From NCBI GenBank assembly GCA_946613885.1, contig CAMOGA010000005.1:3159-67158 (forward strand): 64,000 nt of DNA, given 5' to 3'. Positions 21,065 to 35,606 of this stretch are shown here, in pieces (within the stretch, counting starts at the first letter, position 1; the number at the start of each line of letters is the position of its first letter). This stretch comes from an uncultured Pseudomonadota bacterium. Its GTDB lineage: Bacteria; Pseudomonadota; Alphaproteobacteria; Rs-D84. Below the pieces are notes generated by a model. The model did not search any database and was not told the origin of the DNA. It saw only the letters and a program-made list of their open reading frames with translations. The position numbers and the translations under genes are program-made.

Positions 21065-21484
21065 ATGATTAGAAATATTAGTGTGTTTACTTCTGACATT
21101 TATTGGCAACATATTTTTGTTGAACTGGGGGCGGTTATCGCCGATTCGCAAAAAGTGGCAGATGTTGTGTTTGATGATTTGGATATAAAAACACCTGTGG
21201 CGATTAGGGATTTGTATAAAATCATATTGGATGCGGCGAATAACACAGATATAATCACAGATGTTTTTGGAAAATATGTGATTTTGCCAACTTTGCAACA
21301 TAAAATAGTGGTTTTGTTATACAAAAATCCAAATATAACCATGCAAGAGTTAAAAAATTGCCTGGGGTTATTGCCAGATATAACAACACATACTGTGGAA
21401 AATGCAATTTATCAGTTGCGAAAAATTTATGGTCATGATTTTATTCAAAATATAAATGGGACATATAAAATTGGACACGTATAA
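21065..21484 (+). CDS. winged-helix DNA-binding protein resembling the N-terminal repressor domain of class II BirA
   Basis: The C-terminal 65 aa (LQHKIVVLLYKNPNITMQELKNCLGL...TTHTVENAIYQLRKIYGHDFIQNINGTYKIG) parallel E. coli BirA residues ~5-60. The ORF overlaps the birA start by 29 nt in another frame. Confidence 0.5.
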   Translation: MIRNISVFTSDIYWQHIFVELGAVIADSQKVADVVFDDLDIKTPVAIRDLYKIILDAANNTDIITDVFGKYVILPTLQHKIVVLLYKNPNITMQELKNCLGLLPDITTHTVENAIYQLRKIYGHDFIQNINGTYKIGHV

Positions 21485-22139
21485 ATTATTGTCTTTTGAT
21501 AAAATCCCCAGCACGCAAGATTATGCGCATGATTTGATTGCACATAATAAAATGGGTAATAAAACAATTATTACCGCGATGGCACAAAGTGCAGGGCGGG
21601 GGCGTTATCGCCGCAGTTGGGTTTCACATCATGGAAATTTATACGCATCGTTTATTTATAAAATAACAGAACGTGATCCACGGTTGTCTTATGCAATGGG
21701 GGTCGCTGTTGCAGAAACATTGATTGATTTTGGAATTAGCCCACAAATTAAATGGCCTAATGATGTTTTAGTCGATGGAAAGAAAATTAGTGGTATCTTG
21801 ATTGAGTATTCGCAAAAGTTTGTGATTATTGGTATTGGAATAAATATAAAAACATGTCCAACTGTTGCAGAATATAAAACTACTAAAATGAATAATTATG
21901 TTAAAAATGTTGATGTGTCAGATTTGTTAAATGTTCTGATAAAAAAAATTGATAAATGGCGCAAAACTGATTTCGCCGTTGTTCGTGAACGCTGGATGAA
22001 TTTAGCGGCAGCATTAAACAAAATGATAAAATATCACGGAAAAGATGTGGAATTAATCGGATTAAATGAAGATGGTGCTTTGGTTTTACGTGATGGTTCG
22101 CGATATATTTTAACATATGGTGAAGAAATCAGTTTTTAA
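21456..22139 (+). CDS. birA: biotin--[acetyl-CoA-carboxylase] ligase (catalytic and C-terminal domains only)
   Basis: IPSTQDY, QSAGRGRYRRSW (GRGRxGR.W biotin loop), KWPNDV and KISGILIE. Confidence 0.85.
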   Translation: MGHIKLDTYKLLSFDKIPSTQDYAHDLIAHNKMGNKTIITAMAQSAGRGRYRRSWVSHHGNLYASFIYKITERDPRLSYAMGVAVAETLIDFGISPQIKWPNDVLVDGKKISGILIEYSQKFVIIGIGINIKTCPTVAEYKTTKMNNYVKNVDVSDLLNVLIKKIDKWRKTDFAVVRERWMNLAAALNKMIKYHGKDVELIGLNEDGALVLRDGSRYILTYGEEISF

Positions 22140-22143
22140 TTGC

Positions 22144-22172
22144 TTGACTTTGATGTCAATTTGTGATATTAT
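22144..22172 (+). promoter_or_regulatory. strong sigma70-like promoter at the left edge of the phage-like module
   Basis: TTGACT, 17 nt spacer, TATTAT, with TGn extended -10 (TGATATTAT). Confidence 0.5.
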
Positions 22173-22199
22173 ATTAAACATCAAGAATAGAAATTATGT

Positions 22200-22223
22200 C
22201 CGCACGTTGTTGCGGTTTTTTTT
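22200..22223 (+). terminator. intrinsic terminator 1, ~25 nt after the promoter
   Basis: CCGCAcgttgtTGCGG followed by tttttttt. Confidence 0.6.
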
Positions 22224-22237
22224 ATTCTGAATTTTTT

Positions 22238-22266
22238 GTCTGTGCGTGTTTGCACGGACTTTTTTT
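22238..22266 (+). terminator. intrinsic terminator 2 (tandem)
   Basis: GTCTGTGCgtgtttGCACGGAC followed by ttttttt. Confidence 0.6.
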
Positions 22267-22285
22267 ATTTAAATAGGAAAATAAC

Positions 22286-22696
22286 ATGCATTTAAATTTG
22301 ATAACAAATGATGATGATACGCAAATCACATCATATAAATTGGCACGCATAGTTTTTGCAGAAACTAATGCTGTGTCTTTGCGAGCTGTGGAATCGATGG
22401 CATCAATGATTTATAATATTCATATTAAATATGATAAATCGTTTGCAGATATTGCACATGATAAAAATCTGTTTGATGTATTAAATGAAAATTCATCAAG
22501 ACATAAATTATTAAATGTAAATGCAGATGATAAAAAATTACAAATGTGTTTGCGTGTCGTCAAAACTATGATGCGTGGTAATTTACCAGATGCTGTATTT
22601 GGTGCAATAAAATTTCATCATGCTGACATAATTCCATATTGGGCGATGGCACGTGGATATATAACTGAATGTGAAGATATTTTATATTATTTATAA
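22286..22696 (+). CDS. SleB/CwlJ-type cell wall hydrolase (phage endolysin-like)
   Basis: LARIVFAETNA......MASMIYNI and the C-terminal AIKFHHADIIPYWA follow the Hydrolase_2 (SleB-like) pattern. Confidence 0.65.
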   Translation: MHLNLITNDDDTQITSYKLARIVFAETNAVSLRAVESMASMIYNIHIKYDKSFADIAHDKNLFDVLNENSSRHKLLNVNADDKKLQMCLRVVKTMMRGNLPDAVFGAIKFHHADIIPYWAMARGYITECEDILYYL

Positions 22697-22708
22697 TGAG
22701 GATGAATC

Positions 22709-22900
22709 ATGAATAAATTTATACGTGGTGGATATTTGAAAAATCGTAAAACATATGTTGTATCAACAACAGGAATCGTTGGTGCAATGGGCGCGTATCT
22801 GATTGGTGATGCAGATATATTTACAACATTACAAACAATATTTATGTTGTCTGGAATTTATTTCTTGAAACAAGAATCTTCAACCAAAGGAAAAAAATAA
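22709..22900 (+). CDS. small two-TM membrane protein, holin-like by position
   Basis: 63 aa with two hydrophobic segments and a charged C-terminus, directly after the hydrolase gene. Confidence 0.35.
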   Translation: MNKFIRGGYLKNRKTYVVSTTGIVGAMGAYLIGDADIFTTLQTIFMLSGIYFLKQESSTKGKK

Positions 22901-23556
22901 TGGAATCTGTACCAGAAAAATTTTTAAATGCAGATGGTGAATTAAATACTTCTGCGTTGGTTAAATCATATTGCGAATTAGAAAAAAAGATGAGCAATAT
23001 GGTATCTGTACCAAATGAAGATAGTGATGATGTTGCAAAACAAAAATTTAATCATGCAATTGGGGTGCCTGATGATGCATCTGAATATCCAACAAATGAT
23101 TTGTTTGATGACGAATCGATTCGGAAAAAATTTCACGAGATTGGTTTAACATCAAAACAAGTTGAAAAAATTTATTCCATCGCAGAAGAATTTTTACAAC
23201 CAACATTACAAAATTTATTTCAATTACAATCACAAACAAATGCGATTAATGAATTAAAAAAATTTTTTGGTGATGATGATAAAATGAACGAAGCATTACG
23301 TGAAATAAATTCATTTGGTGAAAGATTTTTACCACACGATGCATTTGATGAGTTGTGCTCTACACCCCAGGGAATCCAAGGCATATATAAAATGATGCAA
23401 TCAATGGAACCAACAATTTTAACAAACAAAAATACAAATGAAAATTTAACTGATGATGCATTGCGAAACATGATGCGTGATCCAAAATATTGGCGTGATC
23501 ATGATCCTGAATATGTTAGAAAAATTGAAAATGGTTTTAAAAAATTATATTCATAA
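22900..23556 (+). CDS. phage capsid scaffolding protein candidate
   Basis: Acidic and helical. N-terminus VPEKFLNADGELNTSALVKSYCELEKK is the pattern seen at the start of podovirus scaffold/assembly proteins. Lies upstream of the capsid gene, as T7 gp9 does. Confidence 0.45.
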   Translation: MESVPEKFLNADGELNTSALVKSYCELEKKMSNMVSVPNEDSDDVAKQKFNHAIGVPDDASEYPTNDLFDDESIRKKFHEIGLTSKQVEKIYSIAEEFLQPTLQNLFQLQSQTNAINELKKFFGDDDKMNEALREINSFGERFLPHDAFDELCSTPQGIQGIYKMMQSMEPTILTNKNTNENLTDDALRNMMRDPKYWRDHDPEYVRKIENGFKKLYS

Positions 23557-23650
23557 TCATTTTATTCTTTACTATTTTGTTTGTTTCATATAAAATAAAA
23601 CCAAGAACAAAATAATTTTGTTCTGTCCAAAAACTTAAAAGGAGAGAATT

Positions 23651-23980
23651 ATGTTCTTTGGTTCCAAGAAAAAATGTGGTTGTGCAAAAGCTGCTGCAAA
23701 GCCAGCTGCTAAACCAGCTGCAAAAAAAGCACCTGCGAAAAAAGTAGCAGTTAAAAAACCAGCTGCAAAACCAGTTGCAAAAAAAGCACCTGCGAAAAAA
23801 GTAGCAGTTAAAAAAGTAGCTGCAAAACCAGTTGCAAAAAAAGCACCTGCGAAAAAAGTAGCTGCAAAAAAACCAGTTGCGAAAAAAGCACCTGCGAAAA
23901 AAGTAGCAGTTAAAAAACCAGCTGCGAAAAAACCAGTTGCAAAAAAAGCACCTGCGAAAAAAGTAGTTAAGAAAAAATAA
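23651..23980 (+). CDS. histone H1-like Lys/Ala/Pro tandem-repeat basic protein
   Basis: Good RBS (aaaaggagagaatt ATG). About 85% K/A/P/V in repeated [19 protein letters not shown] units. Flanked by its own hairpins/terminators. Confidence 0.7.
23690..23975. repeat. imperfect in-frame tandem DNA repeats (45-60 bp units) encoding the KA-rich protein
   Basis: The core gcaaaaaaagcacctgcgaaaaaagtagc recurs about five times at ~57, 57, 45 and 60 bp spacing. Confidence 0.8.
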
Positions 23981-24003
23981 TATGCAAATTTGTATATGAT
24001 TTT

Positions 24004-24038
24004 AATCCCCAAAGCACCATGTTTTGGGGATTTTTTTT
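24004..24038 (+). terminator. intrinsic terminator after the KA-repeat gene
   Basis: AATCCCCAAA...TTTGGGGATT followed by a run of eight T. Confidence 0.7.
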
Positions 24039-24198
24039 AAGATAAATTTTTCAGTTGGATTATATATGTCTAACTGAATTTTTTATTGGATAATCCGTTT
24101 TTTGGACCCTGAATAATGTTTTTATTTATGGCGCATTTTTTGCACAACCATTGATAAAAATTTTTTAGATTTCATAAACAATAAAAAAAGGATTTAAT

Positions 24199-25026
24199 AT
24201 GTCTATGTCTGTTGATCAAGTGTTTATCAAACAATTTGAAGCAGATGTTCATTTGGCTTATCAGCAAATGGGCACAAAATTACGCTCTACAATCCGCAGT
24301 AAATCAGGAGTTGTAGGATATTCAACAACCTTTCAAAAAATTGGCAAGGGTATCGCCAGTACTAAATCACGCCATGGTATTGTGCCGGTTATGAATTTGA
24401 ATCATACACCTGTGGAATGCACTTTACAGGATTATTATGCAGGCGATTGGGTCGATGCATTGGATGAATTGAAAACTAATGTTGATGAACGTCGTGTGGT
24501 GGCATCTGCCGGGGCATATGCGTTGGGTCGTAAAACAGATGAATTAATCATCAATGCTATGAACAGTGCAACACAATATGTTGGCGATTATTCCACAGGT
24601 TTAACCAAATCTTTGATTATGTCCGCACTGGAAATTTTGAATACTAACGATGTGCCAGATGATGGCCGCAGATTTGCAGTTGTTGGTGTTCATCAATGGA
24701 ACGAATTGTTAAAGATATCTGAATTTGTTTCCGCAGATTATGTTGGCAATGCAACACCATTGGTTGACGGTTGCGAATCCAGAAAATGGTTGGGTGTTAA
24801 TTGGATTTTATGTAATGCATTACCGTTGGCAAATACTGATGACCGCGATTGCTTTATTTATCATGCATCCAGTATTGGTCATGCATGTGGTCAAGAAGTT
24901 AAAACAGATATTACCTGGCATGGTGAACGTGCTGCACACTTTATTAGCAACAGTATGTCCCAAGGTGCAGTTTTGATTGATGGCGAAGGTATCGTTCGTA
25001 TTAAATGCGATGACGATGCAGAGTAA
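24199..25026 (+). CDS. major capsid protein, T7 gp10-like
   Basis: The N-terminal half parallels T7 gp10 (F.K.F...V..A.......R..IRS.S.....F...G......). Position between scaffold and tail tubular genes. At 275 aa it is short. Confidence 0.65.
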   Translation: MSMSVDQVFIKQFEADVHLAYQQMGTKLRSTIRSKSGVVGYSTTFQKIGKGIASTKSRHGIVPVMNLNHTPVECTLQDYYAGDWVDALDELKTNVDERRVVASAGAYALGRKTDELIINAMNSATQYVGDYSTGLTKSLIMSALEILNTNDVPDDGRRFAVVGVHQWNELLKISEFVSADYVGNATPLVDGCESRKWLGVNWILCNALPLANTDDRDCFIYHASSIGHACGQEVKTDITWHGERAAHFISNSMSQGAVLIDGEGIVRIKCDDDAE

Positions 25027-25049
25027 TATTTTAACCAAAAGGAAACAAA

Positions 25050-25280
25050 ATGGCTTTTCAAAATAAGAATTTGTCTGTGATTGCGTATGCAAATGGTTTT
25101 ACATTATGGCATTATAAAGAAAATGTGACATTGGCAACGATAATCGCATCTGGATATTTTAATTCTGTAAAAACATTGATGAATACAGGTGATATAATCT
25201 TAATCAATGGTTCAAACGGATCAACAATCAAGGTTGCATCAGTTGTTGATGGTGTTGTCAGTTTGGCGGCACTGTCATAA
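25050..25280 (+). CDS. small phage protein after the capsid gene (possible decoration or minor head protein)
   Basis: 76-aa ORF with an RBS, tightly spaced after the capsid gene. No motif recognised. Confidence 0.35.
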   Translation: MAFQNKNLSVIAYANGFTLWHYKENVTLATIIASGYFNSVKTLMNTGDIILINGSNGSTIKVASVVDGVVSLAALS

Positions 25281-25303
25281 TTTATTTTAATTTGTTCATA
25301 TAT

Positions 25304-25328
25304 CGGGTCGCTTTTTGCGACCCGTTTC
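25304..25328 (+). terminator. hairpin or weak terminator after the head genes
   Basis: CGGGTCGCtttttGCGACCCG followed by tttc. The U-tract is short. Confidence 0.4.
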
Positions 25329-25334
25329 TAATTA

Positions 25335-25865
25335 ATGGGTGTTAAAATGTTTACTAAAATAGATTTATGTTCAATGGCTTTGTTAAAATTGGGCGAAAAA
25401 CCAATTCAATCTTTGAACGAAGATTGTGTGGCTGCCAAATTAGCGCAAAGTTTATTTAATCCAGTAATTGATACATTGTTATCAATGTTTCCTTGGCATT
25501 TCGCAACACAATCAATTTTGTTGGTAAAAAATTCTGATGGTGATTTCGTTATTCCACAAAATGTGTTAAGGGTTTTAAAATGGTCTGGTAAAATAATTGG
25601 AAATAAAATCGAATCCAATTCAGATACATTGAATATAACAGCAATTGTTAAAACAGAACCAGAAAATTTTCCAGGATATTTTGCAAATCTGGTCGCAGAT
25701 AAATTAGCAATGGAATTTTGTATTCCGCTGACAGGTGATGCAAATGTTTTTCGAATGATGTCGGCAATATATGAATCAGAATATCAATCTGCAAAATTCA
25801 TAGATAGCGCATCTTCTAATCAATCAAATATAGATAATTTTTCTTTGATTAATGCCAGATTTTAA
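25335..25865 (+). CDS. tail tubular protein A, T7 gp11-like
   Basis: IDLCSMALLKLGEKPIQSLNEDCVAAKLAQSLFNPVIDTLLSMFPWHFA parallels T7 gp11 [45 protein letters not shown]. Size similar. Start at 25335 or 25347. Confidence 0.65.
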   Translation: MGVKMFTKIDLCSMALLKLGEKPIQSLNEDCVAAKLAQSLFNPVIDTLLSMFPWHFATQSILLVKNSDGDFVIPQNVLRVLKWSGKIIGNKIESNSDTLNITAIVKTEPENFPGYFANLVADKLAMEFCIPLTGDANVFRMMSAIYESEYQSAKFIDSASSNQSNIDNFSLINARF

Positions 25866-25882
25866 ACAAAAGGATTTTATTC

Positions 25883-27595
25883 ATGGGAAATTTTTTAAAG
25901 ACACAAAATGTTTTTTCTGACGGTGAAATTGCACCAGAATTTTATTCAATAAATAATGTTCATGGTGTTGCATCTTTGGAAAACGTTGATGTTTTACAAT
26001 CTGGTGGATTGAAACGTCGGCGCGGATTAAAAAAAATAAAAAATACGGTTAATGGTGCAATATTAGTACCTTTTGTGATAAATGAATCTGAAAAATATTT
26101 GTTGGTAATATATGATACATCCATAGATGTTTATTGTAATGATACCAAAGTATCTTCGATAATATCGCCGTGGTTGGCATCTGATTTATCAAAATTACAA
26201 TATGCACAAAGGTTTAATTCGATATTTTTTGTTCATCCAAATTATATCCCAAAAATTTTAACAAAAACATCGTCTGGTTTTTCTTTAACAGATTTTGTGT
26301 TTTATATTAATTCTGATATTAGTGTGAATATGCCTTTTACACGATTCGATGATACAGATAATATTACAATCGGTATCAGCCCCAGTTCCATAGATAATAA
26401 CCATGCGATATTTACAGCCAGTGCAGATTTGTGGAATGACAATTGGGTTAATACCAGGTTATTAGCAAATAACAAACAGTGGGTTATTGAATCTGTGCAA
26501 GATGCACGTGTGGCAACCGTTTTTACTAACGGTGGTTATACGTTGCCTGATGGTGTGTTAAAAGAGTGGTACGAGGCCGCTTTTAATCCAAGACGTGGTT
26601 GGCCAATGTCTGTATCATTTCATCAAAATAGATTAATTTTTGGTGGAACTCCGTCTTTGCCAAATAATATTTGGATGTCTAAAATTGGCATGTATAATAA
26701 TTTTGATGTTGGAACAGGATTAGATGACGAGGCAATTTTTACCACACTGTTATCATCACAACATCATCAAATATGTACGATTGTCAGTTCTGATGCGTTG
26801 CAAATATTAACTTCGGTTGGTGAATGGGCGATATCTAATTCACCATTAACACCGTCAAATGTTAATATTAAACAGCATACATCTGTTGGCAGTTTTATTG
26901 ATAAATATTTGCCACCACAACAAATTGAGGGTGCAACTGTTTTTGTGTCTAAATCTGGACATGATATTCGTGAATTAGATTTGGATACTCTGAACGATAA
27001 ATATAATGCCACAGATTTATGTGTCTTTTCCAAACATTTGATAAACAAACCGGTCAGTTTAGCGTATAACAAATCATGCCACCAATTATTCGTTGTTACA
27101 GATGATGGGAATATGGCTGTGTTAAACAAATATATTAACACAGATATCGCCGCATGGGGAAAATATACAACAGATGGTTTGTTTAAATGTGTTGCAGTTG
27201 TTGATGATACAACTTATGTTATTGTAAAACGCGGGAATACATCGTATCTGGAAAAATTTGATGATGAGTGTTTGGATGATGCCGGACAATATGATTTTTC
27301 ATATAAAATATCTGGTTTTCCAATGATTATAAATGGACATGTTCCAAAAAAAATTCGCGTTCGTAAAATATCACTGCGTGTAATGAATACGAAAACTTTG
27401 TTTGTGAATAATCACCGTATGGAAATACCGAATTATGCATATGATGAAAATCATGATGGATACAGTGGTGATTTGTATATGAATTTATTCGGAACACAAT
27501 TTGACACTATGAAACCGCTGTGGACAATATCCAGCAATGAACAATTACCAGCAACTATATTATCTGTGACAATGGACGGATGGTATTTAATGTAA
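25883..27595 (+). CDS. tail tubular protein B, T7 gp12-like (shortened)
   Basis: The central segment PRRGWPMSVSFHQNRLIFGGTPSLPNNIWMSKIGMYNNFD....DDEAI parallels T7 gp12 NPWPSF....FFFRNRLGFLSGENIILSRTAKYFNFYP....DDDPI. Follows the gp11-like gene. Confidence 0.6.
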   Translation: MGNFLKTQNVFSDGEIAPEFYSINNVHGVASLENVDVLQSGGLKRRRGLKKIKNTVNGAILVPFVINESEKYLLVIYDTSIDVYCNDTKVSSIISPWLASDLSKLQYAQRFNSIFFVHPNYIPKILTKTSSGFSLTDFVFYINSDISVNMPFTRFDDTDNITIGISPSSIDNNHAIFTASADLWNDNWVNTRLLANNKQWVIESVQDARVATVFTNGGYTLPDGVLKEWYEAAFNPRRGWPMSVSFHQNRLIFGGTPSLPNNIWMSKIGMYNNFDVGTGLDDEAIFTTLLSSQHHQICTIVSSDALQILTSVGEWAISNSPLTPSNVNIKQHTSVGSFIDKYLPPQQIEGATVFVSKSGHDIRELDLDTLNDKYNATDLCVFSKHLINKPVSLAYNKSCHQLFVVTDDGNMAVLNKYINTDIAAWGKYTTDGLFKCVAVVDDTTYVIVKRGNTSYLEKFDDECLDDAGQYDFSYKISGFPMIINGHVPKKIRVRKISLRVMNTKTLFVNNHRMEIPNYAYDENHDGYSGDLYMNLFGTQFDTMKPLWTISSNEQLPATILSVTMDGWYLM

Positions 27596-27615
27596 ATAAA
27601 TCAAAGGAGGTTTTT

Positions 27616-27963
27616 ATGGGACAATTGGTATCAGATGTGACAAAAATATTAGATTATAATAATGCTAAGAAAGATGCAGAAAATCAGCGTCAGAAAATAT
27701 TAGCACAAATCGCATCAGATGAAAAAAACAAAGTAAATCTAATAAAAAAAGTGCTGTCAACGCAACGTGCCAAATACGGTGCAGATGGAAATTCTGGGGA
27801 CAGTTTTTCTGAAAATGCAGTTTTGAAAAGGTTGCGTAATGAAACTGCACAGCCGTATGATGATAAAAAGCAGGAGAATATAGAAAAAATAAGAAAAAAT
27901 AAAATAAAAAAACCAAATTTAATAAAAAATTGGTTGGCAAAACTAGATGATATAGCCGGTTAA
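27616..27963 (+). CDS. small charged protein, small terminase subunit candidate by position
   Basis: Strong RBS (aaaggagg). 115 aa, Lys-rich and coiled-coil-like, immediately upstream of the TerL ATPase ORF as T7 gp18 is. Confidence 0.3.
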   Translation: MGQLVSDVTKILDYNNAKKDAENQRQKILAQIASDEKNKVNLIKKVLSTQRAKYGADGNSGDSFSENAVLKRLRNETAQPYDDKKQENIEKIRKNKIKKPNLIKNWLAKLDDIAG

Positions 27964-27965
27964 AA

Positions 27966-28565
27966 ATGACAGTGGCTGATGCGTTGAATTTTTTGGATGT
28001 ATGGAATAAATTTATCGGATTACAAACGCCAATTCATCATCAAAAAATTATGCGATTTTTGGTTGATGTTTTTAATGAAAATCCCCATCGTGGGTTGTTA
28101 AATGCTTTTCGGCATTCTGGAAAATCTACGGTTGTGGGGATATTTGCCGCATGTGTTTTATACCATCATCCAAAAACCAGAATATTAATATTGTCTGCAG
28201 AATCTGGATTGGCATCCAGAATGGTTTCACATATCAAAAACATATTAGAAAACCATCCGTGGTGCGAAGGGATTTTGCCTGATGTGAAAAAAGAGTGGGG
28301 CAGTCACAAAATTACAATAAAACGCCCGGTTGGAATACGTGAACCTTCGGTTATATGTCAGGGTATCTCAGGAAATATTACCGGTATGCGTTCTGATTTA
28401 ATAATCTGTGATGATGTTGAGGTTCCAAATACATGCAATACTGTGCAAAAACGTATTAATTTGCGCGACAGATTGCGAGAACTGGATTTCATATTATCAC
28501 CAAATGGTGCGATGATTTATATTGGAACACCACACACACATGATACAATATACAAAACAGAATGA
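27966..28565 (+). CDS. terminase large subunit, N-terminal ATPase fragment
   Basis: Walker A FRHSGKST, Walker B DLIICDDVE, and coupling motif IGTPH. The ORF stops right after ...HDTIYKTE, where intact TerL proteins continue. Confidence 0.8.
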   Translation: MTVADALNFLDVWNKFIGLQTPIHHQKIMRFLVDVFNENPHRGLLNAFRHSGKSTVVGIFAACVLYHHPKTRILILSAESGLASRMVSHIKNILENHPWCEGILPDVKKEWGSHKITIKRPVGIREPSVICQGISGNITGMRSDLIICDDVEVPNTCNTVQKRINLRDRLRELDFILSPNGAMIYIGTPHTHDTIYKTE

Positions 28566-28566
28566 T

Positions 28567-29208
28567 TTAAGACAAAGATGATACAAATGTGCGTAATCTG
28601 TTTAACATCTTTTGACCGTTTTCACCAAACATTGGCAGATATGTTTCGTATTCTGGCATGTCTGCCTGGATTTTAGCACGATTGCGTTCTGTTAATGTTT
28701 CTGATAATAATTGTTGTGCAGAATCCCACAATTTGTATGCTGTATCTGTTTTTATGACGTTATCCCATTGTGCAGATAATTCAGAATCCGTCGCAATTGC
28801 AGATTTTATATCTGCGGCCCAATCGTTGCCAAATTTTTTAACTAATTGCATCTGTTTGATTGCATTTAAATTTTCAGATGTTGGTTGAAAACTGGATAAT
28901 GCACGTTTTAATTCGATAATTTCATTTTCTGACAAGGAAATATTTGTTTCGTGTCCCGTCATCATACCACCATAGGGCAACAAATCGTTGTCGATGGAAT
29001 CCATCGGGGTTGTGCCATTACGTAAATTGTTTATGTGTTTGATTAATTTTTTACCTGTGGGTAGATTTTCCAGTTCATGGATTACCTGTTCATCATTGGA
29101 TTCGGCAATAAAAACCTGATTTACAGCCGACCAACCACCGCGAATTACATGTTCTTGGCGATACAGGTTCAACAGGCGTTGTGCAACTACATGAGCCGAT
29201 TGCGACAT
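28567..29208 (-). CDS. hypothetical protein (last gene of the cassette inserted in terL)
   Basis: 213-aa ORF. Its stop lies 1 nt from the stop of the TerL-N ORF. No motif recognised. Confidence 0.5.
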   Translation of the reverse strand: MSQSAHVVAQRLLNLYRQEHVIRGGWSAVNQVFIAESNDEQVIHELENLPTGKKLIKHINNLRNGTTPMDSIDNDLLPYGGMMTGHETNISLSENEIIELKRALSSFQPTSENLNAIKQMQLVKKFGNDWAADIKSAIATDSELSAQWDNVIKTDTAYKLWDSAQQLLSETLTERNRAKIQADMPEYETYLPMFGENGQKMLNRLRTFVSSLS

Positions 29209-29235
29209 GGTTTCTCCCCCCTTGTAGTTAATCAG

Positions 29236-30243
29236 TTATTGCATGACAATCATAACGACTTTGTGCATGCTGGCACCAGATATTTTTTCATCTGGATTAG
29301 ATATATGACCGTATATTTTGCCATGCGAATCTTTTTTTACCAACACAATTTGTGCATCAGAGGTTTCGTCAGATGCCATTTTTGCAAAATCAGATGTTAT
29401 ACATACCGCCAAATCACCAGGTTTAGGTGTTAAACCACTGTCTGCGAAAACATATGCAGATTCTGGAATAAAACCGCCAACGCGTTTTGAATTTGGAACG
29501 ATGGCATAAATGCCACTGCGACCCTCCATCTCGGCAGGTGCAGCAATCATTGTTTCATCAGATTTTTTCAATTTAATACCCTTGGCATTTGGTGTACCAA
29601 ATACAGGAACCAATTTTTTGCGTGCGCTGTCATATAGTTGTGCGCCATATAAACCATCACTTACATTTAATCCGGACACAGGGTTCACAGGTTCCAATAC
29701 AGATTTTACGCGCGCAGTAACTTTGTTGATTTGTTTGGTTAATTCGCCAGAACTGTATAATTTGGCAATTTCATCAAACATTTGTGATGCGGTATACCCA
29801 AAAGCATTTGCCAACACATCAATTTCGTTTTCATAAACCTCACGCTGGCCAACCTCAATTTTATGATATACAGACAAGGTCATTTTTGCCGCCGCCGCTG
29901 CATCTGCGATGGTTTTTTCAGATTTTTGACGAATTTTACGTAATCCGGCACCAAATATCTTCAAACCGCCACCTTCGTTGTCGTTTAAACGGCGTTTGAT
30001 TTCTGTTTGCCACTTTTGTGCGCCAGCATCAGATTCATGGATAAATATATCGGATAACTTACAGCCCAAAATATTGCAAATATTCAAGATTTGTTTTTGA
30101 TTAAGACGACGTACACCTTTTTCAATCTTGGATACGGCAGATAAAGATAAATTCGAACGCCGCGCCAATTCGGTCATTTTCATACCTTTGGCAGTACGAA
30201 TATTGCGAATATTATTTGGAAATATAATTTCTTCTTGGGCCAT
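29236..30243 (-). CDS. double XRE-type HTH regulator with a cI/LexA-like C-terminal domain (catalytic motif not evident)
   Basis: Two HTH_XRE modules (NIRNIRTAKGMKMTELARRSNLSLSAVSKIEKG; LRKIRQKSEKTIADAAAAAKMTLSVYHKIEVG). The C-terminal beta-rich domain has the size of an S24 domain, but no G(D/S)SM Ser motif was seen. Confidence 0.7.
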   Translation of the reverse strand: MAQEEIIFPNNIRNIRTAKGMKMTELARRSNLSLSAVSKIEKGVRRLNQKQILNICNILGCKLSDIFIHESDAGAQKWQTEIKRRLNDNEGGGLKIFGAGLRKIRQKSEKTIADAAAAAKMTLSVYHKIEVGQREVYENEIDVLANAFGYTASQMFDEIAKLYSSGELTKQINKVTARVKSVLEPVNPVSGLNVSDGLYGAQLYDSARKKLVPVFGTPNAKGIKLKKSDETMIAAPAEMEGRSGIYAIVPNSKRVGGFIPESAYVFADSGLTPKPGDLAVCITSDFAKMASDETSDAQIVLVKKDSHGKIYGHISNPDEKISGASMHKVVMIVMQ

Positions 30244-30311
30244 AATTGAACTCCTTGGTATATATTGTTGACAAAATGATAGTCAATTTTTATGAATTTG
30301 GCAAGAAAAAT

Positions 30312-31862
30312 TTAAATGATATCTTCCGGAATTTCATTTATATCAACAATATTTTGGTTTTCGTCAGGTTGATTTTGTGTTTGTTGTTGATTAAATCCGT
30401 TGTCATAATCAGACGGTGTATCAAATTGATTTAAATTATCAAATAATGAATAATCGCCATTAAAGGACAAATGAACCGTTTCTGGTTTTCCATGACGGTT
30501 TTTAGCAATTATAACGTCTGCCTTGTTTTTCGCGTTGTTTAAGCGTTTGTGCCAATTTTGGATTACTGCATCAGATGCAGGACCAGATAACCTGTCTTCG
30601 GGCGAATGTCCGTTCAGATAGTATTCTTCACGGTATGTGAACATGACAATATCAGCATCTTGTTCAATAGATCCCGATTCACGTAAATCCGACAGAATTG
30701 GTCGCTTGTCATCACGATCTTCAACTTTACGTGATAACTGGGACAATACAACAACAGGAACATCCAATTCTTTGGCCAATATTTTTAGACCACGAGTGAT
30801 TTCAGATAATTCTTGAACACGATTGTCGTTGCGTTTGCCGCCAGGCGAAGACATCAATTGTAAATAATCGATAACAATTAATGCAATACCGCCAAATTGA
30901 CGTGCAATACGGCGCGCACGTGTTTTTATCGCAGGAACAGACACTTCGGATGTATCATCAATAACAATCGGAACCTTGGATAACGCATCAACATATTGGG
31001 ACATTTTCATAAAATCTTCGTCCGTTAGGTTGCTGCCTTCACGCATCATTGATGCCGGAATTTTAGATTGAGATGACAATATACGTGCCGCCAATTGTGG
31101 AAAAGACATTTCCAAACTGAAAAATGCGACCGCACCATGATATTGTTTGTTCGCACGTCCGTTTAATATTGCGTTTGCTGCATTAAATGCGATATTTAAT
31201 GCCAGTGTTGTTTTTCCCATCGCAGGACGACCAGCAATAATTATTAAATCAGAATGGTGCAGACCACTGATTGATTTATCCAAATCGTCCAACCCGGTTG
31301 TTAAACCAGATAATTTGCCATCAGCTTTATAAGCGGTTTCGGCCTCAGCCAGGGCGCTTTTTAATGCAGTTGCCAATGTGACAACATTGCGTTCTGTTTG
31401 ACCCGTCGATGCTAAATTAAATAATTTTTGTTCCGCAGATTCAATTTGTGTGTTAACCGGTTTGTCTAAATCTTCAACATAGGCATCATCAATAATAGAT
31501 TGTCCCAGATGTATTAAATCGCGTCTGCGTGCGTTGTCAAATACAATTTGCCCGTAATGCGCGACATTAACAACGGTTGAACCGGCAGATGCCAATTCTG
31601 ATAAATATTGTATGCCGCCAACAGATTCCAGTGTTCCCTGTTGTTCCAAGTATGTTTTTGCAGTAATAATATCAAACGGAACACCCACAGCAAATTGGCG
31701 CAGAGCCAATTTATAAATTTCTTGGTGTGCAGGATGTGAAAAGTGTTCTGGCAATAAAAATTCAGACACAGATTCCAACGCACGGTTATCCATCAACACC
31801 GCAGCCAGAACAGCTTGTTCTGCTTCTAAATTAACAGGTAAAGTTTTCGGGGTAAAGTCCAT
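30312..31862 (-). CDS. dnaB: replicative DNA helicase DnaB with a Q/N/D-rich C-terminal tail
   Basis: N-terminal P.NLEAEQAVLAAVL, Walker A GRPAMGKTT, IVIDYLQLM, SQLSR and RESGSIEQDAD. The start codon overlaps the start of the TerL-C ORF (CATG). Confidence 0.92.
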   Translation of the reverse strand: MDFTPKTLPVNLEAEQAVLAAVLMDNRALESVSEFLLPEHFSHPAHQEIYKLALRQFAVGVPFDIITAKTYLEQQGTLESVGGIQYLSELASAGSTVVNVAHYGQIVFDNARRRDLIHLGQSIIDDAYVEDLDKPVNTQIESAEQKLFNLASTGQTERNVVTLATALKSALAEAETAYKADGKLSGLTTGLDDLDKSISGLHHSDLIIIAGRPAMGKTTLALNIAFNAANAILNGRANKQYHGAVAFFSLEMSFPQLAARILSSQSKIPASMMREGSNLTDEDFMKMSQYVDALSKVPIVIDDTSEVSVPAIKTRARRIARQFGGIALIVIDYLQLMSSPGGKRNDNRVQELSEITRGLKILAKELDVPVVVLSQLSRKVEDRDDKRPILSDLRESGSIEQDADIVMFTYREEYYLNGHSPEDRLSGPASDAVIQNWHKRLNNAKNKADVIIAKNRHGKPETVHLSFNGDYSLFDNLNQFDTPSDYDNGFNQQQTQNQPDENQNIVDINEIPEDII

Positions 31863-32709
31863 GTCTATAAGGTTAAACGAAAATTTTGATAATTCAACAC
31901 CTTTTTTACGGGGGTATAAACAATTAAAAATTCCAATAATAGATATTGCCGGAAATTCAGCATGGCCAGAGGTGTTTCCATTAGAAAAAATTCATGAATT
32001 GGAAAATACAGTGGGAACACGACATTTTTCGGCTCAGATGATGTTAGAATATATGCCCGATGAACGCGTTCATTTAGATCCTGGGGCAATTAATTTTTAT
32101 TGTGATGATTTTAATCATCGTTTGGCGTGTATCGGTGTTCATGAAATTTCTGGTGTCAGTTTTTATTGGGATCCGTCATCTGGGCGTGCTAATTCTGATG
32201 GCAGTGTTTGTGTGTTAATTTATCGTGATGATAAAAACAGAAATGTTTTTGTTCATGATGTTTTATATATGCTGGTGGCAGATAACGATTTGTATCCATT
32301 ACGTAATCAATGTGAAACTGTTCTAGATTTTATGCAAAATAATTTTCTGAACAAAATAGCGGTTGAAATAAACGGAATTGGAAATGCTTTGCCAGAGATA
32401 ATTCGGACCAATGCATTAAAAAAACATATGCATGTAAATATAACACAAATTGCAAATCACACAAAAAAAGAAACCAGAATTTTAAATGCAATTGAACCTT
32501 TGTTAACCACAGGACATTTATACATGCATGAACGAATAAAACAAACAGTGTTGTTGTCTGAAATGTTGGCGTGGACACCGATGGGCAGCAAAGAACATGA
32601 TGATGGTTTGGATGCGCTGGCTGGGGCTGTGTCTGTGATGCCTGCACCAATCAGACCGATAAATTATAGCCAAAAATTAATTCAAGCAAATACAGAATTT
32701 CAAATATAA
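31861..32709 (+). CDS. terminase large subunit, C-terminal nuclease fragment
   Basis: WPEVFPLEKIHEL....FSAQMMLEYMP (end of the ATPase lid), then RNase H-like nuclease motifs FYWDPSSGRANSDGS and HDDGLDALAGAV. Immediately upstream of the portal gene. Confidence 0.75.
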   Translation: MSIRLNENFDNSTPFLRGYKQLKIPIIDIAGNSAWPEVFPLEKIHELENTVGTRHFSAQMMLEYMPDERVHLDPGAINFYCDDFNHRLACIGVHEISGVSFYWDPSSGRANSDGSVCVLIYRDDKNRNVFVHDVLYMLVADNDLYPLRNQCETVLDFMQNNFLNKIAVEINGIGNALPEIIRTNALKKHMHVNITQIANHTKKETRILNAIEPLLTTGHLYMHERIKQTVLLSEMLAWTPMGSKEHDDGLDALAGAVSVMPAPIRPINYSQKLIQANTEFQI

Positions 32710-32733
32710 ACAACCTAACCAAAAGGATAAAAT

Positions 32734-33975
32734 ATGGAAAAAAATCTTGTGCAATTATATAAACGTGCATTAAATGAACGTGAAATTTGGTTGCCCCGTT
32801 GGAAAAATGCTATGCGTTATACGGTGCCAACAAACGATACAGATGTTGCAACATTGTTTGATGCAACCGCATCAGATGCTGTTGATAATCTGGCGGCATC
32901 AATGTATTCTTTATTAACGCCACCTGAATCATTATGGATAAATTTGGTTCGTGAAAGTGATTTATCGCCAGACCCAGAAATTGCAACCAAAATGTTGCGG
33001 GCGCATTTAAATGATTCTAATTTTTATACAACTATACATCAGTGTTATATTGATTTAATTGTTTTGGGAACAGCGTGTTTGTTTATGGCTGAAAATCCAA
33101 TTGGGGCAAATTCAGCGTTTTCTTTTACGGCGATTCCAATGACAGATATTGCCATATTGCCGGGGGCGATATTTCATACTACGTCAATACCTGCATGCGA
33201 TTTGATGGAAAAATATCCAACGATAACTTTGCCAAACCATATGAAAGACACTGTAAAAAATAATCCAGAAACACCAATTAATCTGGTGCAATCATTAATT
33301 GGACAAGATTTTACTGCCTGGATTGATGTTGGCGGCGATTTTGAAAATAATGTTGTTGCGCGTGGAAAATTTGAAACAAATCCGTATATAATTTTTCGCT
33401 GGTCTTTGATTAGTGGTGAATTATATGGTCGTGGCCCAGTGTTGCGTGCGTTGCCAGATATAAAAACTGTTAACAAAGTTGTAGAATTGGTATTAAAAAA
33501 TGCAACAATCGCCGTCAGTGGTATCTGGCAGGCCGATGATGATGGGGTAATTAATTTATCAAATATAAATCTGACACCCGGCGCAATTATTCCCAAGGCA
33601 GTCGGCAGTTCAGGTCTGACCCCGTTGGCCAGCGGTGCAGATTTTGATGTGTCACAAATAGTTCTGCGCGATTTGCGTGACAGAATACGTCATACATTAT
33701 TGGCAGACAGGTTGGGTTTGTTGTCCGATAAAGAGATGACCGCTACAGAAATTTTAGCACGTAATTCGGATATGGTTCGTATCTTAGGTGCAACGTATGG
33801 TCGTTTGTTGCACGAATTTATTCGCCCGTTGTGTGAACGTGGATTGCAAATATTATCGCGTCGTGGATTAATTGATAAAATATCTTTGCACAGTGATGCA
33901 GAATTAGAATACATTGCGCCAATTGCACAAATGGCACGTGAAGAAATCTCAATCACAGGGGTTGATAATGAATAA
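32734..33975 (+). CDS. portal (head-to-tail connector) protein, T7 gp8-like
   Basis: LYKRALNEREIW...RYTVPT......A.DNLAASMYSLLTPPESLWINL parallels T7 gp8 VYERLKNDRAPY...QYTIPS......GLNNLASKLMLALFPMQTWMRL. YGRGPVLRALPDIK parallels YGRSYIEEYLGDLR. MTATEILAR parallels VTAEEIRYV. Confidence 0.8.
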   Translation: MEKNLVQLYKRALNEREIWLPRWKNAMRYTVPTNDTDVATLFDATASDAVDNLAASMYSLLTPPESLWINLVRESDLSPDPEIATKMLRAHLNDSNFYTTIHQCYIDLIVLGTACLFMAENPIGANSAFSFTAIPMTDIAILPGAIFHTTSIPACDLMEKYPTITLPNHMKDTVKNNPETPINLVQSLIGQDFTAWIDVGGDFENNVVARGKFETNPYIIFRWSLISGELYGRGPVLRALPDIKTVNKVVELVLKNATIAVSGIWQADDDGVINLSNINLTPGAIIPKAVGSSGLTPLASGADFDVSQIVLRDLRDRIRHTLLADRLGLLSDKEMTATEILARNSDMVRILGATYGRLLHEFIRPLCERGLQILSRRGLIDKISLHSDAELEYIAPIAQMAREEISITGVDNE

Positions 33976-34171
33976 TATTGAAAAACAATATGCGCAAACG
34001 TTTGTGACGGCATCGGGTAAACGGGTTTTATCCCATTTGCGAACAATTACTGTTGAACGCATTTTGGGACAAAATGCGACAAATGACGAATTAAGATGGT
34101 GGGCGGCACAGTGTGCATTGTTCCATCAAATTGAAAATTTAATAAATAGAGGAAATAATTCATCGCAGTAA
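33968..34171 (+). CDS. small conserved phage protein (Bbp19-like?)
   Basis: 67-aa ORF whose ATG overlaps the portal stop (ATGA). The pattern SGKRVLSHL.......ERILG....E......EG-like is recalled from small podovirus head-module proteins. Confidence 0.35.
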   Translation: MNNIEKQYAQTFVTASGKRVLSHLRTITVERILGQNATNDELRWWAAQCALFHQIENLINRGNNSSQ

Positions 34172-34226
34172 TAACAATACCAGGACATATTGCCGTAATT
34201 GTTTGTTATGAATTATTTAAGTAATT

Positions 34227-34487
34227 ATGAATAAAACACAAAATATTTTTAATATTGTGGACATTTTGCGCGATAGTTGGTTTTTAATCGCATTTATCGC
34301 AGGAATAATTTATTGGGCCGCACGTCAAGATTCTTCGTTGTCAGAAATTGAACGCCAAGACCAGCGAATAACAGCTTTGGAAAATCGAACGACAATCTTG
34401 GAATCTGGTATTGGACAATTGCAATTGAAAATTGACGGGATTAAAGAAGATGTGACGTTAATTAAAAGTGCGGTTATAAAAAACTAA
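34227..34487 (+). CDS. small TM plus coiled-coil protein (phage-associated, unknown role)
   Basis: One TM helix (WFLIAFIAGIIYWAA) followed by a heptad-like coiled coil. Last + strand gene of the module. Confidence 0.4.
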   Translation: MNKTQNIFNIVDILRDSWFLIAFIAGIIYWAARQDSSLSEIERQDQRITALENRTTILESGIGQLQLKIDGIKEDVTLIKSAVIKN

Positions 34488-34837
34488 ATCACGTTTTTTG
34501 CCCAATGTATTTTATGTCCGCAAACCATAATAACATCAAATCGTGCATCGCCGTGCCAATGTTTTTTTATTAAATAAGTTTCTGCGGCACGGCGCAGGCG
34601 CGCTGATTGACCTGGGGTTATTGCATCCCATGCGGATTGTATGGTTTTATGTGCTTTGACTTCTACAAAAACAATAGTGTTTTTATGTTTCGCAATTATA
34701 TCTATTTCTGCACGATTAGTATTTTTGCCGGTAATATATCTGTGCGCCAATATGCGGTATCCGTGCAGGCGCAAATACATGCGAACCAGAAATTCAGAAT
34801 AAATCCCAATCCAGTAAGATGTTTTATTAAAACGCAT
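34484..34837 (-). CDS. yraN: YraN-family (UPF0102) endonuclease-like protein
   Basis: G...E......L...GY.IL..R.......EIDIIA......VFVEVK pattern. Start set at MRFNKT. Confidence 0.75.
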   Translation of the reverse strand: MRFNKTSYWIGIYSEFLVRMYLRLHGYRILAHRYITGKNTNRAEIDIIAKHKNTIVFVEVKAHKTIQSAWDAITPGQSARLRRAAETYLIKKHWHGDARFDVIMVCGHKIHWAKNVI

Positions 34838-35606
34838 ATGGTTTTGCCTGGAAATTTTCACGAGATTTTTGGATGTTAATAGATGAATCTGTGGTGTTTA
34901 ATCCATTATCTGTTAAAACCAATTGACCATAATATGCACGCATCATTGGGTCATAGGCATTTTCAGATGAAATCCATTTGTCTTCACCAGAATTTGGTAT
35001 TCCGTATTTATCAATTACACCCTGCCAAAAAGCCAAAATCTTTTTTTCGCGGATGTTCGAAAATTTTTCATCACCACCATCCATTTGGTTAACATCATTT
35101 TTGTAAACGATTTTCCAAACAACATTGTCTGTGGCATTACTGGTCATGTAAATATCAATGGTTTCGCCGGTAAATGTACGTTCCAAATGTATTTCAGATA
35201 CATATAATAATCCACGATTTTTAGCCAACGAATATATGCATTTTTTTAATTGGTCTGGAATAAAAATATTGTTTTGACGACATTCGTAATCCAGATTGTA
35301 TTCCCATTCTTTGTTTATCGTGTAAACAATGCTGTCTTTTTGGCGCGGTGCATACAGTGATGAATTATTAAAAAACAGATTGTATACTTCATCATAATTC
35401 ATGCCCAACATTGCGCCGCCAATATCAAAATGTTTTACATCTAATACCCCCATGTCATCGTTTAAAGATACTGGTTCCATGTTCATATCATCATCTGTAT
35501 CATCAACAATAGCAAAATTGTCAAAATCTAAATTATCGTCAGCAATCGAAAAATTGCCCGAAAATATTATTGAACACACGGATATAAAAAATAATATTCT
35601 TTTCAT
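34827..35606 (-). CDS. secreted hypothetical protein
   Basis: Signal peptide MKRILFFISVCSIIFSGNFSIA and an acidic N-terminal region. Last gene of the bamA-downstream operon. Confidence 0.5.
   Translation of the reverse strand: MKRILFFISVCSIIFSGNFSIADDNLDFDNFAIVDDTDDDMNMEPVSLNDDMGVLDVKHFDIGGAMLGMNYDEVYNLFFNNSSLYAPRQKDSIVYTINKEWEYNLDYECRQNNIFIPDQLKKCIYSLAKNRGLLYVSEIHLERTFTGETIDIYMTSNATDNVVWKIVYKNDVNQMDGGDEKFSNIREKKILAFWQGVIDKYGIPNSGEDKWISSENAYDPMMRAYYGQLVLTDNGLNTTDSSINIQKSRENFQAKPYAF

Follow-up and report, generated by a model that had tools for sequence, protein, structure and literature searches.

The locus described here raises the question of whether a block of phage genes, lodged among housekeeping genes of a gut bacterium, is a prophage or a particle-producing locus that belongs to its host. 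The block, of ~12 kb, occupies positions 22144-34487 of the window, by which we mean the whole 64-kb stretch of DNA analysed, and its genes are related to those of phage T7. A sequence-only reading had proposed a domesticated locus, comparable to a gene transfer agent (GTA), rather than a fresh prophage, and synteny, selection and co-divergence with the host agree with this view. Indeed, the constant gene order, the intact open reading frames (ORFs), the ratios of nonsynonymous to synonymous substitution rates (dN/dS) and the co-divergence with the host support domestication and rule out a fresh or decaying prophage. The block is very probably a domesticated, functional particle locus owned by its host. 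With moderate confidence, we interpret it as the remnant of a T7-like podovirus, vertically inherited by the host genus and kept by selection as a GTA-like particle machine.

The host is Candidatus Enterousia, a gut alphaproteobacterium of the uncultured order Rs-D84, with genomes of 0.75-1.0 Mb (~0.9 Mb) (PMC12306168). The source sequence is a single 64-kb window, and the related genomes were viewed as loci of ~20 kb, with flanks of 6-10 kb. A search with the capsid protein in a collection holding one genome per species returned 498 related stretches. The best 80 of these 498 came from metagenome-assembled genomes (MAGs) from the rumen and from the gut of horse, yak, sheep, goat and chicken, labelled either Candidatus Enterousia or uncultured Alphaproteobacteria.

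Head, tail, packaging and lysis genes

The block carries a complete, selected gene set for a T7-type prohead, a short tail, a two-piece packaging ATPase/nuclease and lysis (Table 1), phage genes making up ~9 kb of its length. The T7-like portal, scaffold, capsid, gp11 and gp12 proposed earlier were all recovered by profile and structure matches. They are collinear, and the T7 order that had been read from the circularised block matches that of the phage relatives after circular permutation. The structural proteins that have matches all fall in T7-type families (PF12236, PF05396, PF19821, PF17212, and PF22530), and no block protein matched siphovirus tail, tape-measure or HK97-prohead-protease families in Pfam and PHROGs. 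The gp11-like adaptor passed the PF17212 cutoff of 22.3 bits by little (22.8 bits, E 9.5e-5), and the gp12-like nozzle matched the PDB entry 8ck1, named 'Tail Nozzle' (E 5.6e-28).

Table 1. Features of the block and its flanks, with positions in the window. dN/dS is pairwise (Nei-Gojobori, pairs with dS 0.05-1.5); dS is near saturation, so the ratios are approximate. TM, transmembrane; HTH, helix-turn-helix; TerL-N and TerL-C, the two parts of the large terminase
Feature	Position	Strand	Matches and remarks	dN/dS
birA	21456-22139		left flank of the block	0.19
sigma-70-type promoter	22144-22172	+	TTGACT, 17 nt, TG-extended TATTAT; directly after the birA stop codon	
leader with two tandem intrinsic terminators	22200-22268	+	hairpins 22200-22215 and 22238-22259, T-run after each	
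endolysin-like, 136 aa	22286-22696	+	phrog_938 E 3.6e-7; no Pfam match	0.33
holin candidate, 63 aa	22709-22900	+	two TM segments and charged, Lys-rich C-terminus, read directly	0.25
scaffold (T7-type capsid assembly)	22900-23556	+	PF05396 E 1.4e-9; phrog_3742 E 3.6e-16	0.24
H1-like Lys/Ala/Pro-rich protein, 109 aa	23651-23980	+	NF038052, NF038053, E ~4e-9, below cutoff	
two terminator-like hairpins	24004-24078	+	gap between H1-like and capsid genes	
major capsid, 275 aa	24199-25026	+	PF19821 E 1e-72; phrog_3437; PDB 9eg4 E 2.9e-25	0.09
76-aa protein	25050-25280	+	phrog_18004 E 6.6e-13	0.14
terminator-like hairpins	25247-25324	+	after the capsid unit; at least one site in 69/79 loci	
gp11-like tail adaptor (tubular protein A)	25335-25865	+	phrog_394 E 1.7e-29; PF17212	0.20
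gp12-like tail nozzle (tubular protein B), 570 aa	25883-27595	+	phrog_376 E 8.4e-87	0.19
115-aa helical protein	27616-27963	+	conserved start MGQLVSDV; ORF 27580-27963, Met13 at 27616	
TerL-N (ATPase; Walker A, Walker B, coupling motif)	27966-28565	+	phrog_38 positions 276-459, E 2.5e-41	0.09
213-aa protein, last gene of the nested unit	28567-29208	minus	present in all Enterousia loci	0.22
regulator (XRE335), 335 aa	29236-30243	minus	two XRE-type HTH (PF01381 twice) and C-terminal beta domain	0.11
dnaB, cellular-type replicative helicase	30312-31862	minus	NF006606 595.5 bits, cutoff 540; TIGR00665 500, cutoff 385	0.087
TerL-C (ATPase end and RNaseH-like nuclease)	31861-32709	+	phrog_38 positions 466-707, E 5e-37; PF22530 E 5.9e-8	0.175
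T7-type portal (head-tail connector), 413 aa	32734-33975	+	PF12236 E 4.8e-78; T7 portal 6r21/3j4a	0.07
Bbp19-like small phage protein	33968-34171	+	PF25181 E 7e-4, below cutoff	
86-aa membrane-anchored coiled-coil protein	34227-34487	+	right end of the block; phrog_736 (no function assigned)	0.13
yraN/UPF0102	34484-34861	minus	right flank of the block	
lpxI			adjoining gene	0.08

The large terminase (TerL) had been read as a single gene. Its T7 type holds (phrog_38, PF22530, and the T7 gp19 structure 4bij, which TerL-N matches with E 1.3e-21), but it is encoded by two ORFs, with 3.3 kb and three minus-strand genes in between, among them a dnaB that the earlier reading had missed. Almost nothing was lost at the break, as over phrog_38 positions 276-707 the two ORFs together lack 6 profile positions and carry 17 extra residues. 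The Walker A, Walker B and coupling motifs of TerL-N are invariant in 73 species, and the acidic nuclease motifs of TerL-C are conserved in 70 species.

An intron or an intein as the cause of the split was considered and rejected. Introns were absent from the Rfam matches of both the window and the sister element L131 (see below), and an intein has no room, because both ORFs cover the profile with the few extra residues just given. Excision of the 3.3-kb insert, which would rejoin terL, is not supported, as neither a recombinase gene nor flanking direct repeats were found.

The nested unit begins with dnaB, the product of which is of the cellular type and scores below the cutoff of the phage_DnaB family (TIGR03600). 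Among the matches listed, the nearest DnaB proteins outside Enterousia lie on alphaproteobacterial contigs, several of them hundreds of kb long. In all species the start codons of dnaB and TerL-C overlap in the palindrome CATG, and at the other end the stop codons of the 213-aa gene and TerL-N abut (-16 to +7 nt). With zero spacing, the nested unit and the TerL-C/portal unit must each have their promoter within the coding sequence of the other. The 213-aa protein matched no family and no solved structure.

The C-terminal domain of the regulator is predicted to have the lambda-CI/LexA fold: in the AlphaFold model this domain has confidence (pLDDT) values of 70-91 (mean for the model 67.7, from a shallow alignment), and Foldseek matched the model to the lambda repressor (3bdn, 2ho0) and to the LexA C-domain (6a2s). 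The CI-like catalytic Lys is not conserved. As a separate matter, the idea that XRE335 is the retained repressor of the ancestral phage was dropped, a profile search against the CI-like repressor of the phage-like contig L138 having given nothing.

One locus departs from the usual spacing. In L235 (positions 1016-3203; WRIM01000036.1, MAG Nt197P3bin44), TerL-C and dnaB are separated by ~2.2 kb of extra sequence, whereas their start codons overlap in all the other loci.

Among the small genes, the one for the 76-aa protein follows the capsid gene in all relatives, including the pelagiphage Hodr and the relatives from IMG/VR, and homologs of the Bbp19-like protein follow the portal in Hodr, in MT838907 and in the IMG/VR relatives. 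The Bbp19-like gene likely starts at an internal Met, since the upstream part of its ORF carries stops in other species.

The ORF at 27580-27963 had been named as a possible small terminase (TerS). This identity was rejected, as the ORF has no match in Pfam, PHROG, NCBIfam or PDB-profile searches, hence none to a terminase family, and its homologs point elsewhere. The 115-aa protein aligns with the small proteins encoded after gp12 in L163 (14010-14507) and L138 (13960-14409), and the L138 counterpart matches phrog_418, 'internal virion protein' (E 6e-4). It is more likely a small internal virion protein in the gp13/14 position, to judge by these homologs; this one weak resemblance is all that the block holds of internal core proteins.

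The predicted lysis proteins differ in part from the earlier assignments. The SleB-type hydrolase is endolysin-like on a weak match (Table 1), and the SleB type itself is weakly supported. The 86-aa protein has one TM segment at the N-terminus followed by a coiled coil, and may be spanin-like or holin-like. A better holin candidate, on composition and position, is the 63-aa ORF, because it has two TM segments and a basic tail and lies beside the endolysin gene; it is kept in all loci and also in the elements L163, L206 and L183 outside the genus. In L163, a protein that by eye and without alignment is built like the 86-aa one is encoded directly upstream of the endolysin.

Between scaffold and capsid lies a gene for a histone-H1-like (H1-like) protein. 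An ORF of 52-165 aa occurs at this place in all of the ~70 loci holding both flanking genes, with a K+A+P content of 73-83%, some values being lowered by over-extended starts. The phage relative L138 lacks it, with no ORF of at least 100 aa between scaffold and capsid. The stretch 23689-23989 of this gene is made of 12-15-nt tandem repeats, 16 copies in register. The sequence-only reading had missed this gene, as well as the TerL split, the two-TM holin candidate and the promoter with two terminators described below.

Inheritance, selection and phage ancestry

Gene order was the same in every Enterousia locus examined (123 distinct capsid sequences, duplicates removed). It runs from orf139, birA, endolysin, holin candidate, scaffold, H1-like gene, capsid, 76-aa gene, gp11, gp12 and 115-aa gene to TerL-N, continues with the 213-aa gene, the regulator and dnaB on the minus strand, and ends with TerL-C, portal, Bbp19-like gene and 86-aa gene. 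Differences among loci come from contig ends alone. A total of 105 distinct dnaB genes (105 genomes, duplicates removed) are nested between the TerL halves, and the block stays whole where rearrangements have moved yraN, lpxI, rumA or bamA. The claim that the structural ORFs are intact extends to the genus: apart from start/stop wobble, two internal stops were found in ~80 loci.

The dN/dS values of the block range from 0.07 to 0.33 (approximate, as stated in Table 1), which indicates purifying selection as strong as that on the neighbouring housekeeping genes (0.08-0.19 for lpxI, rumA and birA). Furthermore, the protein distances of the element follow those of the host, with Pearson coefficients of 0.68-0.95 for element against host and 0.76-0.84 for host against host; the test was run on protein alignments and all compared genes are linked in one locus. 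The mean pairwise distance was 0.14 for the capsid, 0.21 for LpxI, 0.25 for DnaB and 0.35 for BirA. Coherently with the earlier impression by eye, base composition resembles that of the host: G+C is ~36% in the window, 0.31-0.39 in the block, which is slightly lower, and 0.32-0.41 elsewhere. Keeping ~9 kb of phage genes in genomes of 0.75-1.0 Mb (PMC12306168) also argues for a function.

The third codon positions of the capsid gene are unusually conserved (1.06 bits vs 0.67-0.77 in the other genes tested), and dS is lower for capsid and scaffold too. Codon selection for high expression, or a signal embedded in the gene, may be the reason.

The closest cultured phage is the Pelagibacter phage EXVC031P Hodr (capsid identity 42%, portal 33%). 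A 5-kb fragment of human-faecal origin, MT838907, is closer, with a capsid identity of 64%, and portal identity to the phage relatives spans 33-45%. In IMG/VR, ~30 phage-like contigs (L132-L162) have a capsid identity of ~60% and the order portal, Bbp19-like, scaffold, capsid, 76-aa, gp11, gp12, small ORFs and unsplit TerL. In L138, the unsplit TerL is accompanied by genes for a collagen-like fibre and a CI-like repressor and by a transposase fragment. Circular permutation of this phage order, with loss of all that lies between gp12 and terminase and between terminase and portal, gives the Enterousia order.

Outside the genus, four sister elements (L131, L163, L169, and L206) have a capsid identity of 65-70% and a TerL split at the same profile position, with a spacer of 170-575 nt that holds no dnaB. 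Three of them (L131, L163 and L206) were seen to encode, just upstream of TerL-N, a protein of 216-237 aa with the T7 fibre N-terminal domain. The L163 element has pyk/tkt/mlaC on one side and amiC/ftsZ on the other, on a chromosomal contig of 455 kb, and there is no portal gene near it. As these outgroups are split without dnaB, the division of TerL is older than the insertion of dnaB, the regulator and the 213-aa gene. On this comparison, the insertion is specific to the Enterousia lineage, in which the fibre gene was lost from the block.

About 48 'viral' entries of IMG/VR (L083-L130) are in fact the Enterousia host locus. In many of them the cut falls exactly at the beginning of the capsid gene, and the host dnaB is part of the entry. 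Provirus predictors thus already file this chromosomal locus as virus.

A promoter followed by two terminators

Directly after birA lies the best promoter match in a 15-kb scan, with a -35 hexamer that is invariant and an extended -10 that is conserved in 56 species. The two leader terminators end ~18 nt before the endolysin start. This gap is too short for a further promoter, so that RNA polymerase has to cross both terminators to transcribe the first operon. At least two terminator hairpins were found in the leaders of 64 out of 66 species, and their pairing is supported by covariation: 82.5% of the cells are paired, compared to 69.5% in shuffles and 29-67% when the structure is slid, compensatory cells number 107 vs 33, and both sides change in 11 of 12 pairs. 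The leader matched no Rfam family.

Further terminators lie inside the cluster. The scaffold-capsid interval has at least two terminator-like sites in 71/72 loci, the control gaps having zero, and the hairpins that follow the capsid unit occupy what we take to be the position of the T7 terminator T-phi after gene 10. The block thus has the architecture of an antitermination operon, a promoter followed by terminators upstream of the genes and more terminators within, and this transcription architecture is off by default. The succession of a promoter and two covarying terminators points to antitermination control, for which the 213-aa and 139-aa proteins are candidate antiterminators.

The late operon of phage lambda has a similar layout, with promoter pR', terminator tR' and then lysis and morphogenesis genes, expressed through antitermination by Q. 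The block shares with it the one-strand succession of promoter, terminator(s), lysis genes and morphogenesis genes; unlike lambda, it has two tandem terminators and is interrupted by a host unit on the opposite strand, and no Q-like protein or binding element was identified.

In the outgroups, analogous but different leaders with promoter, hairpin and terminator were read by eye before the lysis genes and in the spacer before TerL-C; a regular-expression search did not find the Enterousia leader promoter in them. The terminase spacers (L131 9058-9391, L163 15767-16002, L169 15497-16070, L206 8046-8219) contain a TTGACA-type promoter, a long hairpin with a CU-rich loop (UUCUCUCUCCUC-like) and a T-run terminator. 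This element may be a conserved leader RNA; the L131 spacer, the one searched, had no Rfam match at gathering thresholds.

Function of the particle and surroundings of the block

Two features that characterize GTAs are found here. The first is a chromosomal set of phage structural and packaging genes without replication, integration or excision functions of its own, as judged from the window ORFs scanned; the second is vertical inheritance under purifying selection. Neither the block nor the ORFs scanned across the other 50 kb contain integrase, polymerase, large core or fibre genes, in line with what had been read from the sequence. The scan covered the larger ORFs, ~10 ORFs of 90-250 aa falling outside it, and those scanned outside the block were housekeeping genes or had no family match. 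From the complete T7 set, RNA and DNA polymerase, gp15-16, fibre gp17, TerS and an unsplit TerL are absent among them, and the replication gene in or next to the block is the cellular-type dnaB only.

The way in which such a locus could work may be outlined as follows. The strong conserved promoter would fire into the short leader and stop at the two terminators, leaving the genes behind them off by default. An antitermination signal would let the polymerase through the leader and the internal terminators, and the nested regulator with the predicted CI/LexA fold may take part in controlling this read-through. Endolysin, holin, scaffold, H1-like protein, capsid, adaptor, nozzle, small virion protein and portal would then be made and assembled, the two terminase polypeptides would associate and fill the heads with cellular DNA, and the H1-like protein may help to condense or mark the packaged DNA. 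Finally, the producer cell would lyse and release short-tailed particles able to carry host DNA to other cells.

The block can be compared with three known systems. Like the RcGTA-type elements of Rhodobacter and Caulobacter, it is a chromosomal, phage-derived cluster of head, tail and packaging genes of ~12-15 kb, vertically inherited under purifying selection and without a phage replication or integration module. The GTA of Caulobacter is controlled partly by antitermination past internal terminators (PMC11150451). The RcGTA genes are of the siphovirus HK97 type, whereas the recognisable structural families of the block are all T7-type, and for this reason the block is not a member of the RcGTA family. 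It also differs in having lysis genes inside the cluster and a split terminase, and no GafA, GafY or GafZ-like regulator was recognised in it.

The Bartonella element BaGTA is reportedly another independently domesticated GTA of host-associated Alphaproteobacteria, present genus-wide and diverging with its host. Set beside it by description only, the block is likewise physically linked to a replication function. In Bartonella this is a phage-derived run-off replication origin (PMC2697382), in the block the cellular-type dnaB nested in terL.

The third system, FpGTA of Faecalibacterium prausnitzii, is judged by its authors to be most likely podovirus-like (PMC12946183). Its operon I, of 10.5 kb, encodes TerS, TerL, portal, scaffold and capsid and has no replication genes, its fibre, receptor-binding and lysis genes lie at a second locus 125 kb away, and both the packaging of 8.4-8.9 kb of host DNA and the particle proteome were shown experimentally (PMC12946183). 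The likeness to the block is one of description, a gut bacterium with genes of short-tailed phages; the host of FpGTA is a Firmicute, whereas Enterousia is an alphaproteobacterium.

The phage relatives themselves, Hodr and the IMG/VR podoviruses, share with the block homologous capsid and portal and the order portal, Bbp19-like, scaffold, capsid, 76-aa, gp11 and gp12. They differ in having an unsplit TerL (L138), fibre, CI-like repressor, early genes and large internal proteins; in Hodr, two ORFs (783 and 1247 aa) were assigned to this last group on size and position alone.

Several points weigh against gene transfer. All the evidence is computational, particles and DNA packaging being predicted from the genes, and the visible part of the genome is 64 kb, so that accessory loci may exist elsewhere. 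T7-type terminases normally act on specific concatemer ends, and family searches recognised no small terminase in the block. Neither a tail fibre nor large ejection proteins of the gp15/gp16 type were found in the block, the protein with the fibre N-terminal domain being found in the outgroups only. Such proteins may have their genes at other loci, as is the case for FpGTA and RcGTA, or uptake of the DNA may lie with the recipient cells.

The size of the head is a further point. The PDB entry 9eg4, the solved capsid closest to that of the block, has 7 chains, by analogy a hint of a T=7 head, and the capsid has the same length, 275 aa, as in the 34-kb phage Hodr, so the head may not be small. 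A T=7 head could have room for more DNA than the 12-kb locus, in which case it is not assured that the particle cannot package its own genes, as expected of a GTA. As for expression, no block protein matches Q, GafZ or other antiterminator families in Pfam, PHROGs and NCBIfam, and a promoter for the TerL-C/portal unit was not found. A low-probability solution is an antiterminated transcript that continues beyond terL-N, crosses the insert in antisense to dnaB and so reaches terL-C and portal; it fits the zero intergenic spacing, and several loose terminator-like matches on the + strand of the insert speak against it.

The alternative that survives best, although we hold it unlikely, is a domesticated particle with a role other than transfer. 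Such a particle might serve programmed lysis, in which kin receive DNA or cell contents, hinder infection by relatives of the ancestral phage, or act on other cells by delivery or killing. This alternative shares all the conservation evidence, and since neither fibre nor large ejection proteins were found in the block, it is doubtful whether DNA would be delivered efficiently. The lysis genes come first behind the gated promoter, and the H1-like protein might condense DNA for another use. Against this, portal and TerL halves are among the most constrained proteins (dN/dS 0.07-0.175) and the ATPase and nuclease motifs are intact, which speaks for selection on DNA packaging itself. Moreover, we know of no podovirus tail that kills cells as contractile tailocins do.

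Clearly less probable is a prophage that is complete but rearranged, or a phage spread over several loci, of which the block would be one part; the missing genes would then lie elsewhere, and infectious virions would still be produced. One genome was viewed over 64 kb and the others over loci of ~20 kb, and the portal lies away from the rest of the element in the outgroup L163; known GTAs and FpGTA do keep fibre and lysis genes at second loci (PMC12946183). What speaks against a dispersed phage is that the block has a fixed order and location, diverges with its host, and carries a cellular-type dnaB nested inside terL in all Enterousia loci examined. In addition, there is no flanking integrase, and the search for att-like direct repeats at the block ends returned chance-level repeats only, as the earlier reading had anticipated. 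Such an arrangement could hardly be excised and packaged as a unit.

A neutral prophage remnant, persisting through the essential dnaB embedded in it, has very little probability left. It would account for a dnaB without intergenic space on either side, but linkage guards against large deletions and not against point mutations, and the structural ORFs are all intact with low dN/dS at near-saturated dS. The outgroup elements, moreover, are conserved without a nested dnaB. A dnaB-baited scan gave ~10 Enterousia loci among the matches listed, of which 8 were standard, one was the variant L235 and one, L236 (positions 1-6500; JBAYXF010000016.1), was the degraded block of a related MAG. In L236, capsid residues 1-85 are fused to the terminase from residue 170 (the last 29 residues of TerL-N), and gp11, gp12, the 115-aa ORF, portal and Bbp19-like gene are deleted, while TerL-C, the regulator, the 213-aa gene, the flanks and an inverted dnaB are retained. 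Since the particle genes were lost and dnaB was kept, the former are dispensable for life and are lost quickly once selection lapses, and elsewhere it is selection, not linkage to dnaB, that keeps them. The patchy presence with pseudogenes that had been named as refuting domestication was seen in this lineage only.

Just as improbable is a capsid-forming island, a type of phage satellite that would make its own heads and take tails or other parts from a helper phage: the block does encode head, portal and terminase and lacks fibre and ejection proteins, but it has no integrase, att sites or replication initiator of its own (its replication gene being the cellular-type dnaB only), encodes its own adaptor and nozzle, and is fixed in position and vertically inherited, in contrast to the patchy spread of mobile islands.

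The GTA-like interpretation is therefore retained, and the block is most likely an independently domesticated T7-like element of the GTA type, of a kind not described before. We found no T7-like GTA and no alphaproteobacterial GTA of podovirus type in the literature searched, nor any description of the block in that searched on Enterousia, Rs-D84, and GTAs with T7-like/podovirus; the paper describing Enterousia mentions neither phages nor GTAs (PMC12306168). The claim that a podovirus-derived GTA would be new holds within these limits, FpGTA being a partial precedent (PMC12946183).

Tentatively, and with less confidence, we propose a third, independently evolved alphaproteobacterial GTA, the first from a T7-like podovirus, with a two-polypeptide terminase, a nested dnaB and CI-like regulator that would couple the making of particles to the cell's replication and regulatory state, and antitermination gating at the leader. 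Few GTA lineages are known, and each of them changed views on phage domestication and gene flow. If true, the proposal would add an independent origin from a T7-like podovirus, classically a strictly lytic type of phage. What sets the element apart is a terminase whose split is conserved, an essential dnaB nested in that split together with the gene of a CI-fold regulator, a head module that includes an H1-like gene, and a leader with terminators in tandem.

That genomes below 1 Mb keep ~9 kb of phage genes, and that the capsid among these varies less than DnaB, implies a strong benefit; a streamlined genome also gives a setting in which to test why GTAs persist, a long-standing question. The hosts are uncultured and widespread bacteria of livestock and bird guts, and rumen and faecal viromes may hold Enterousia chromosomal DNA misread as contamination. 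For further study, the locus offers a TerL split over more than 100 species, a nested essential host gene and a switch made of a promoter and a double terminator.

The block is flanked by the housekeeping genes birA and yraN, as reported earlier. Upstream in the window are parC/gyrA-like, map, radC, gap, miaA and priA, with lpxI, a methyltransferase gene and birA adjoining the block; downstream are yraN, bamA, rseP (by position), ligA, and genes for a class A penicillin-binding protein, RNase E/G, lon and a two-piece transfer-messenger RNA. The latter, of the permuted alphaproteobacterial type, lies away from the block at 61772-62125 (-). Three tRNA genes, at 42706-42778 (+), 42820-42893 (+) and 55873-55946 (-), do not adjoin the block either, and a gene for a PIF1-like helicase (56040-57311, +) sits amid housekeeping genes.

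Two groups of ORFs accompany the flanks. The 139-aa ORF orf139 (21065-21484, +) overlaps the birA start and stays with birA and the block even in genomes with rearrangements; its C-terminal part resembles by eye a BirA-type winged helix, and it matched no family and no PDB entry. On the other side, three neighbouring ORFs of 259, 228 and 232 aa without family matches (34827-36990, -), the 232-aa one with a faint VirB8 match, stay beside yraN and move along with it in rearranged flanks.

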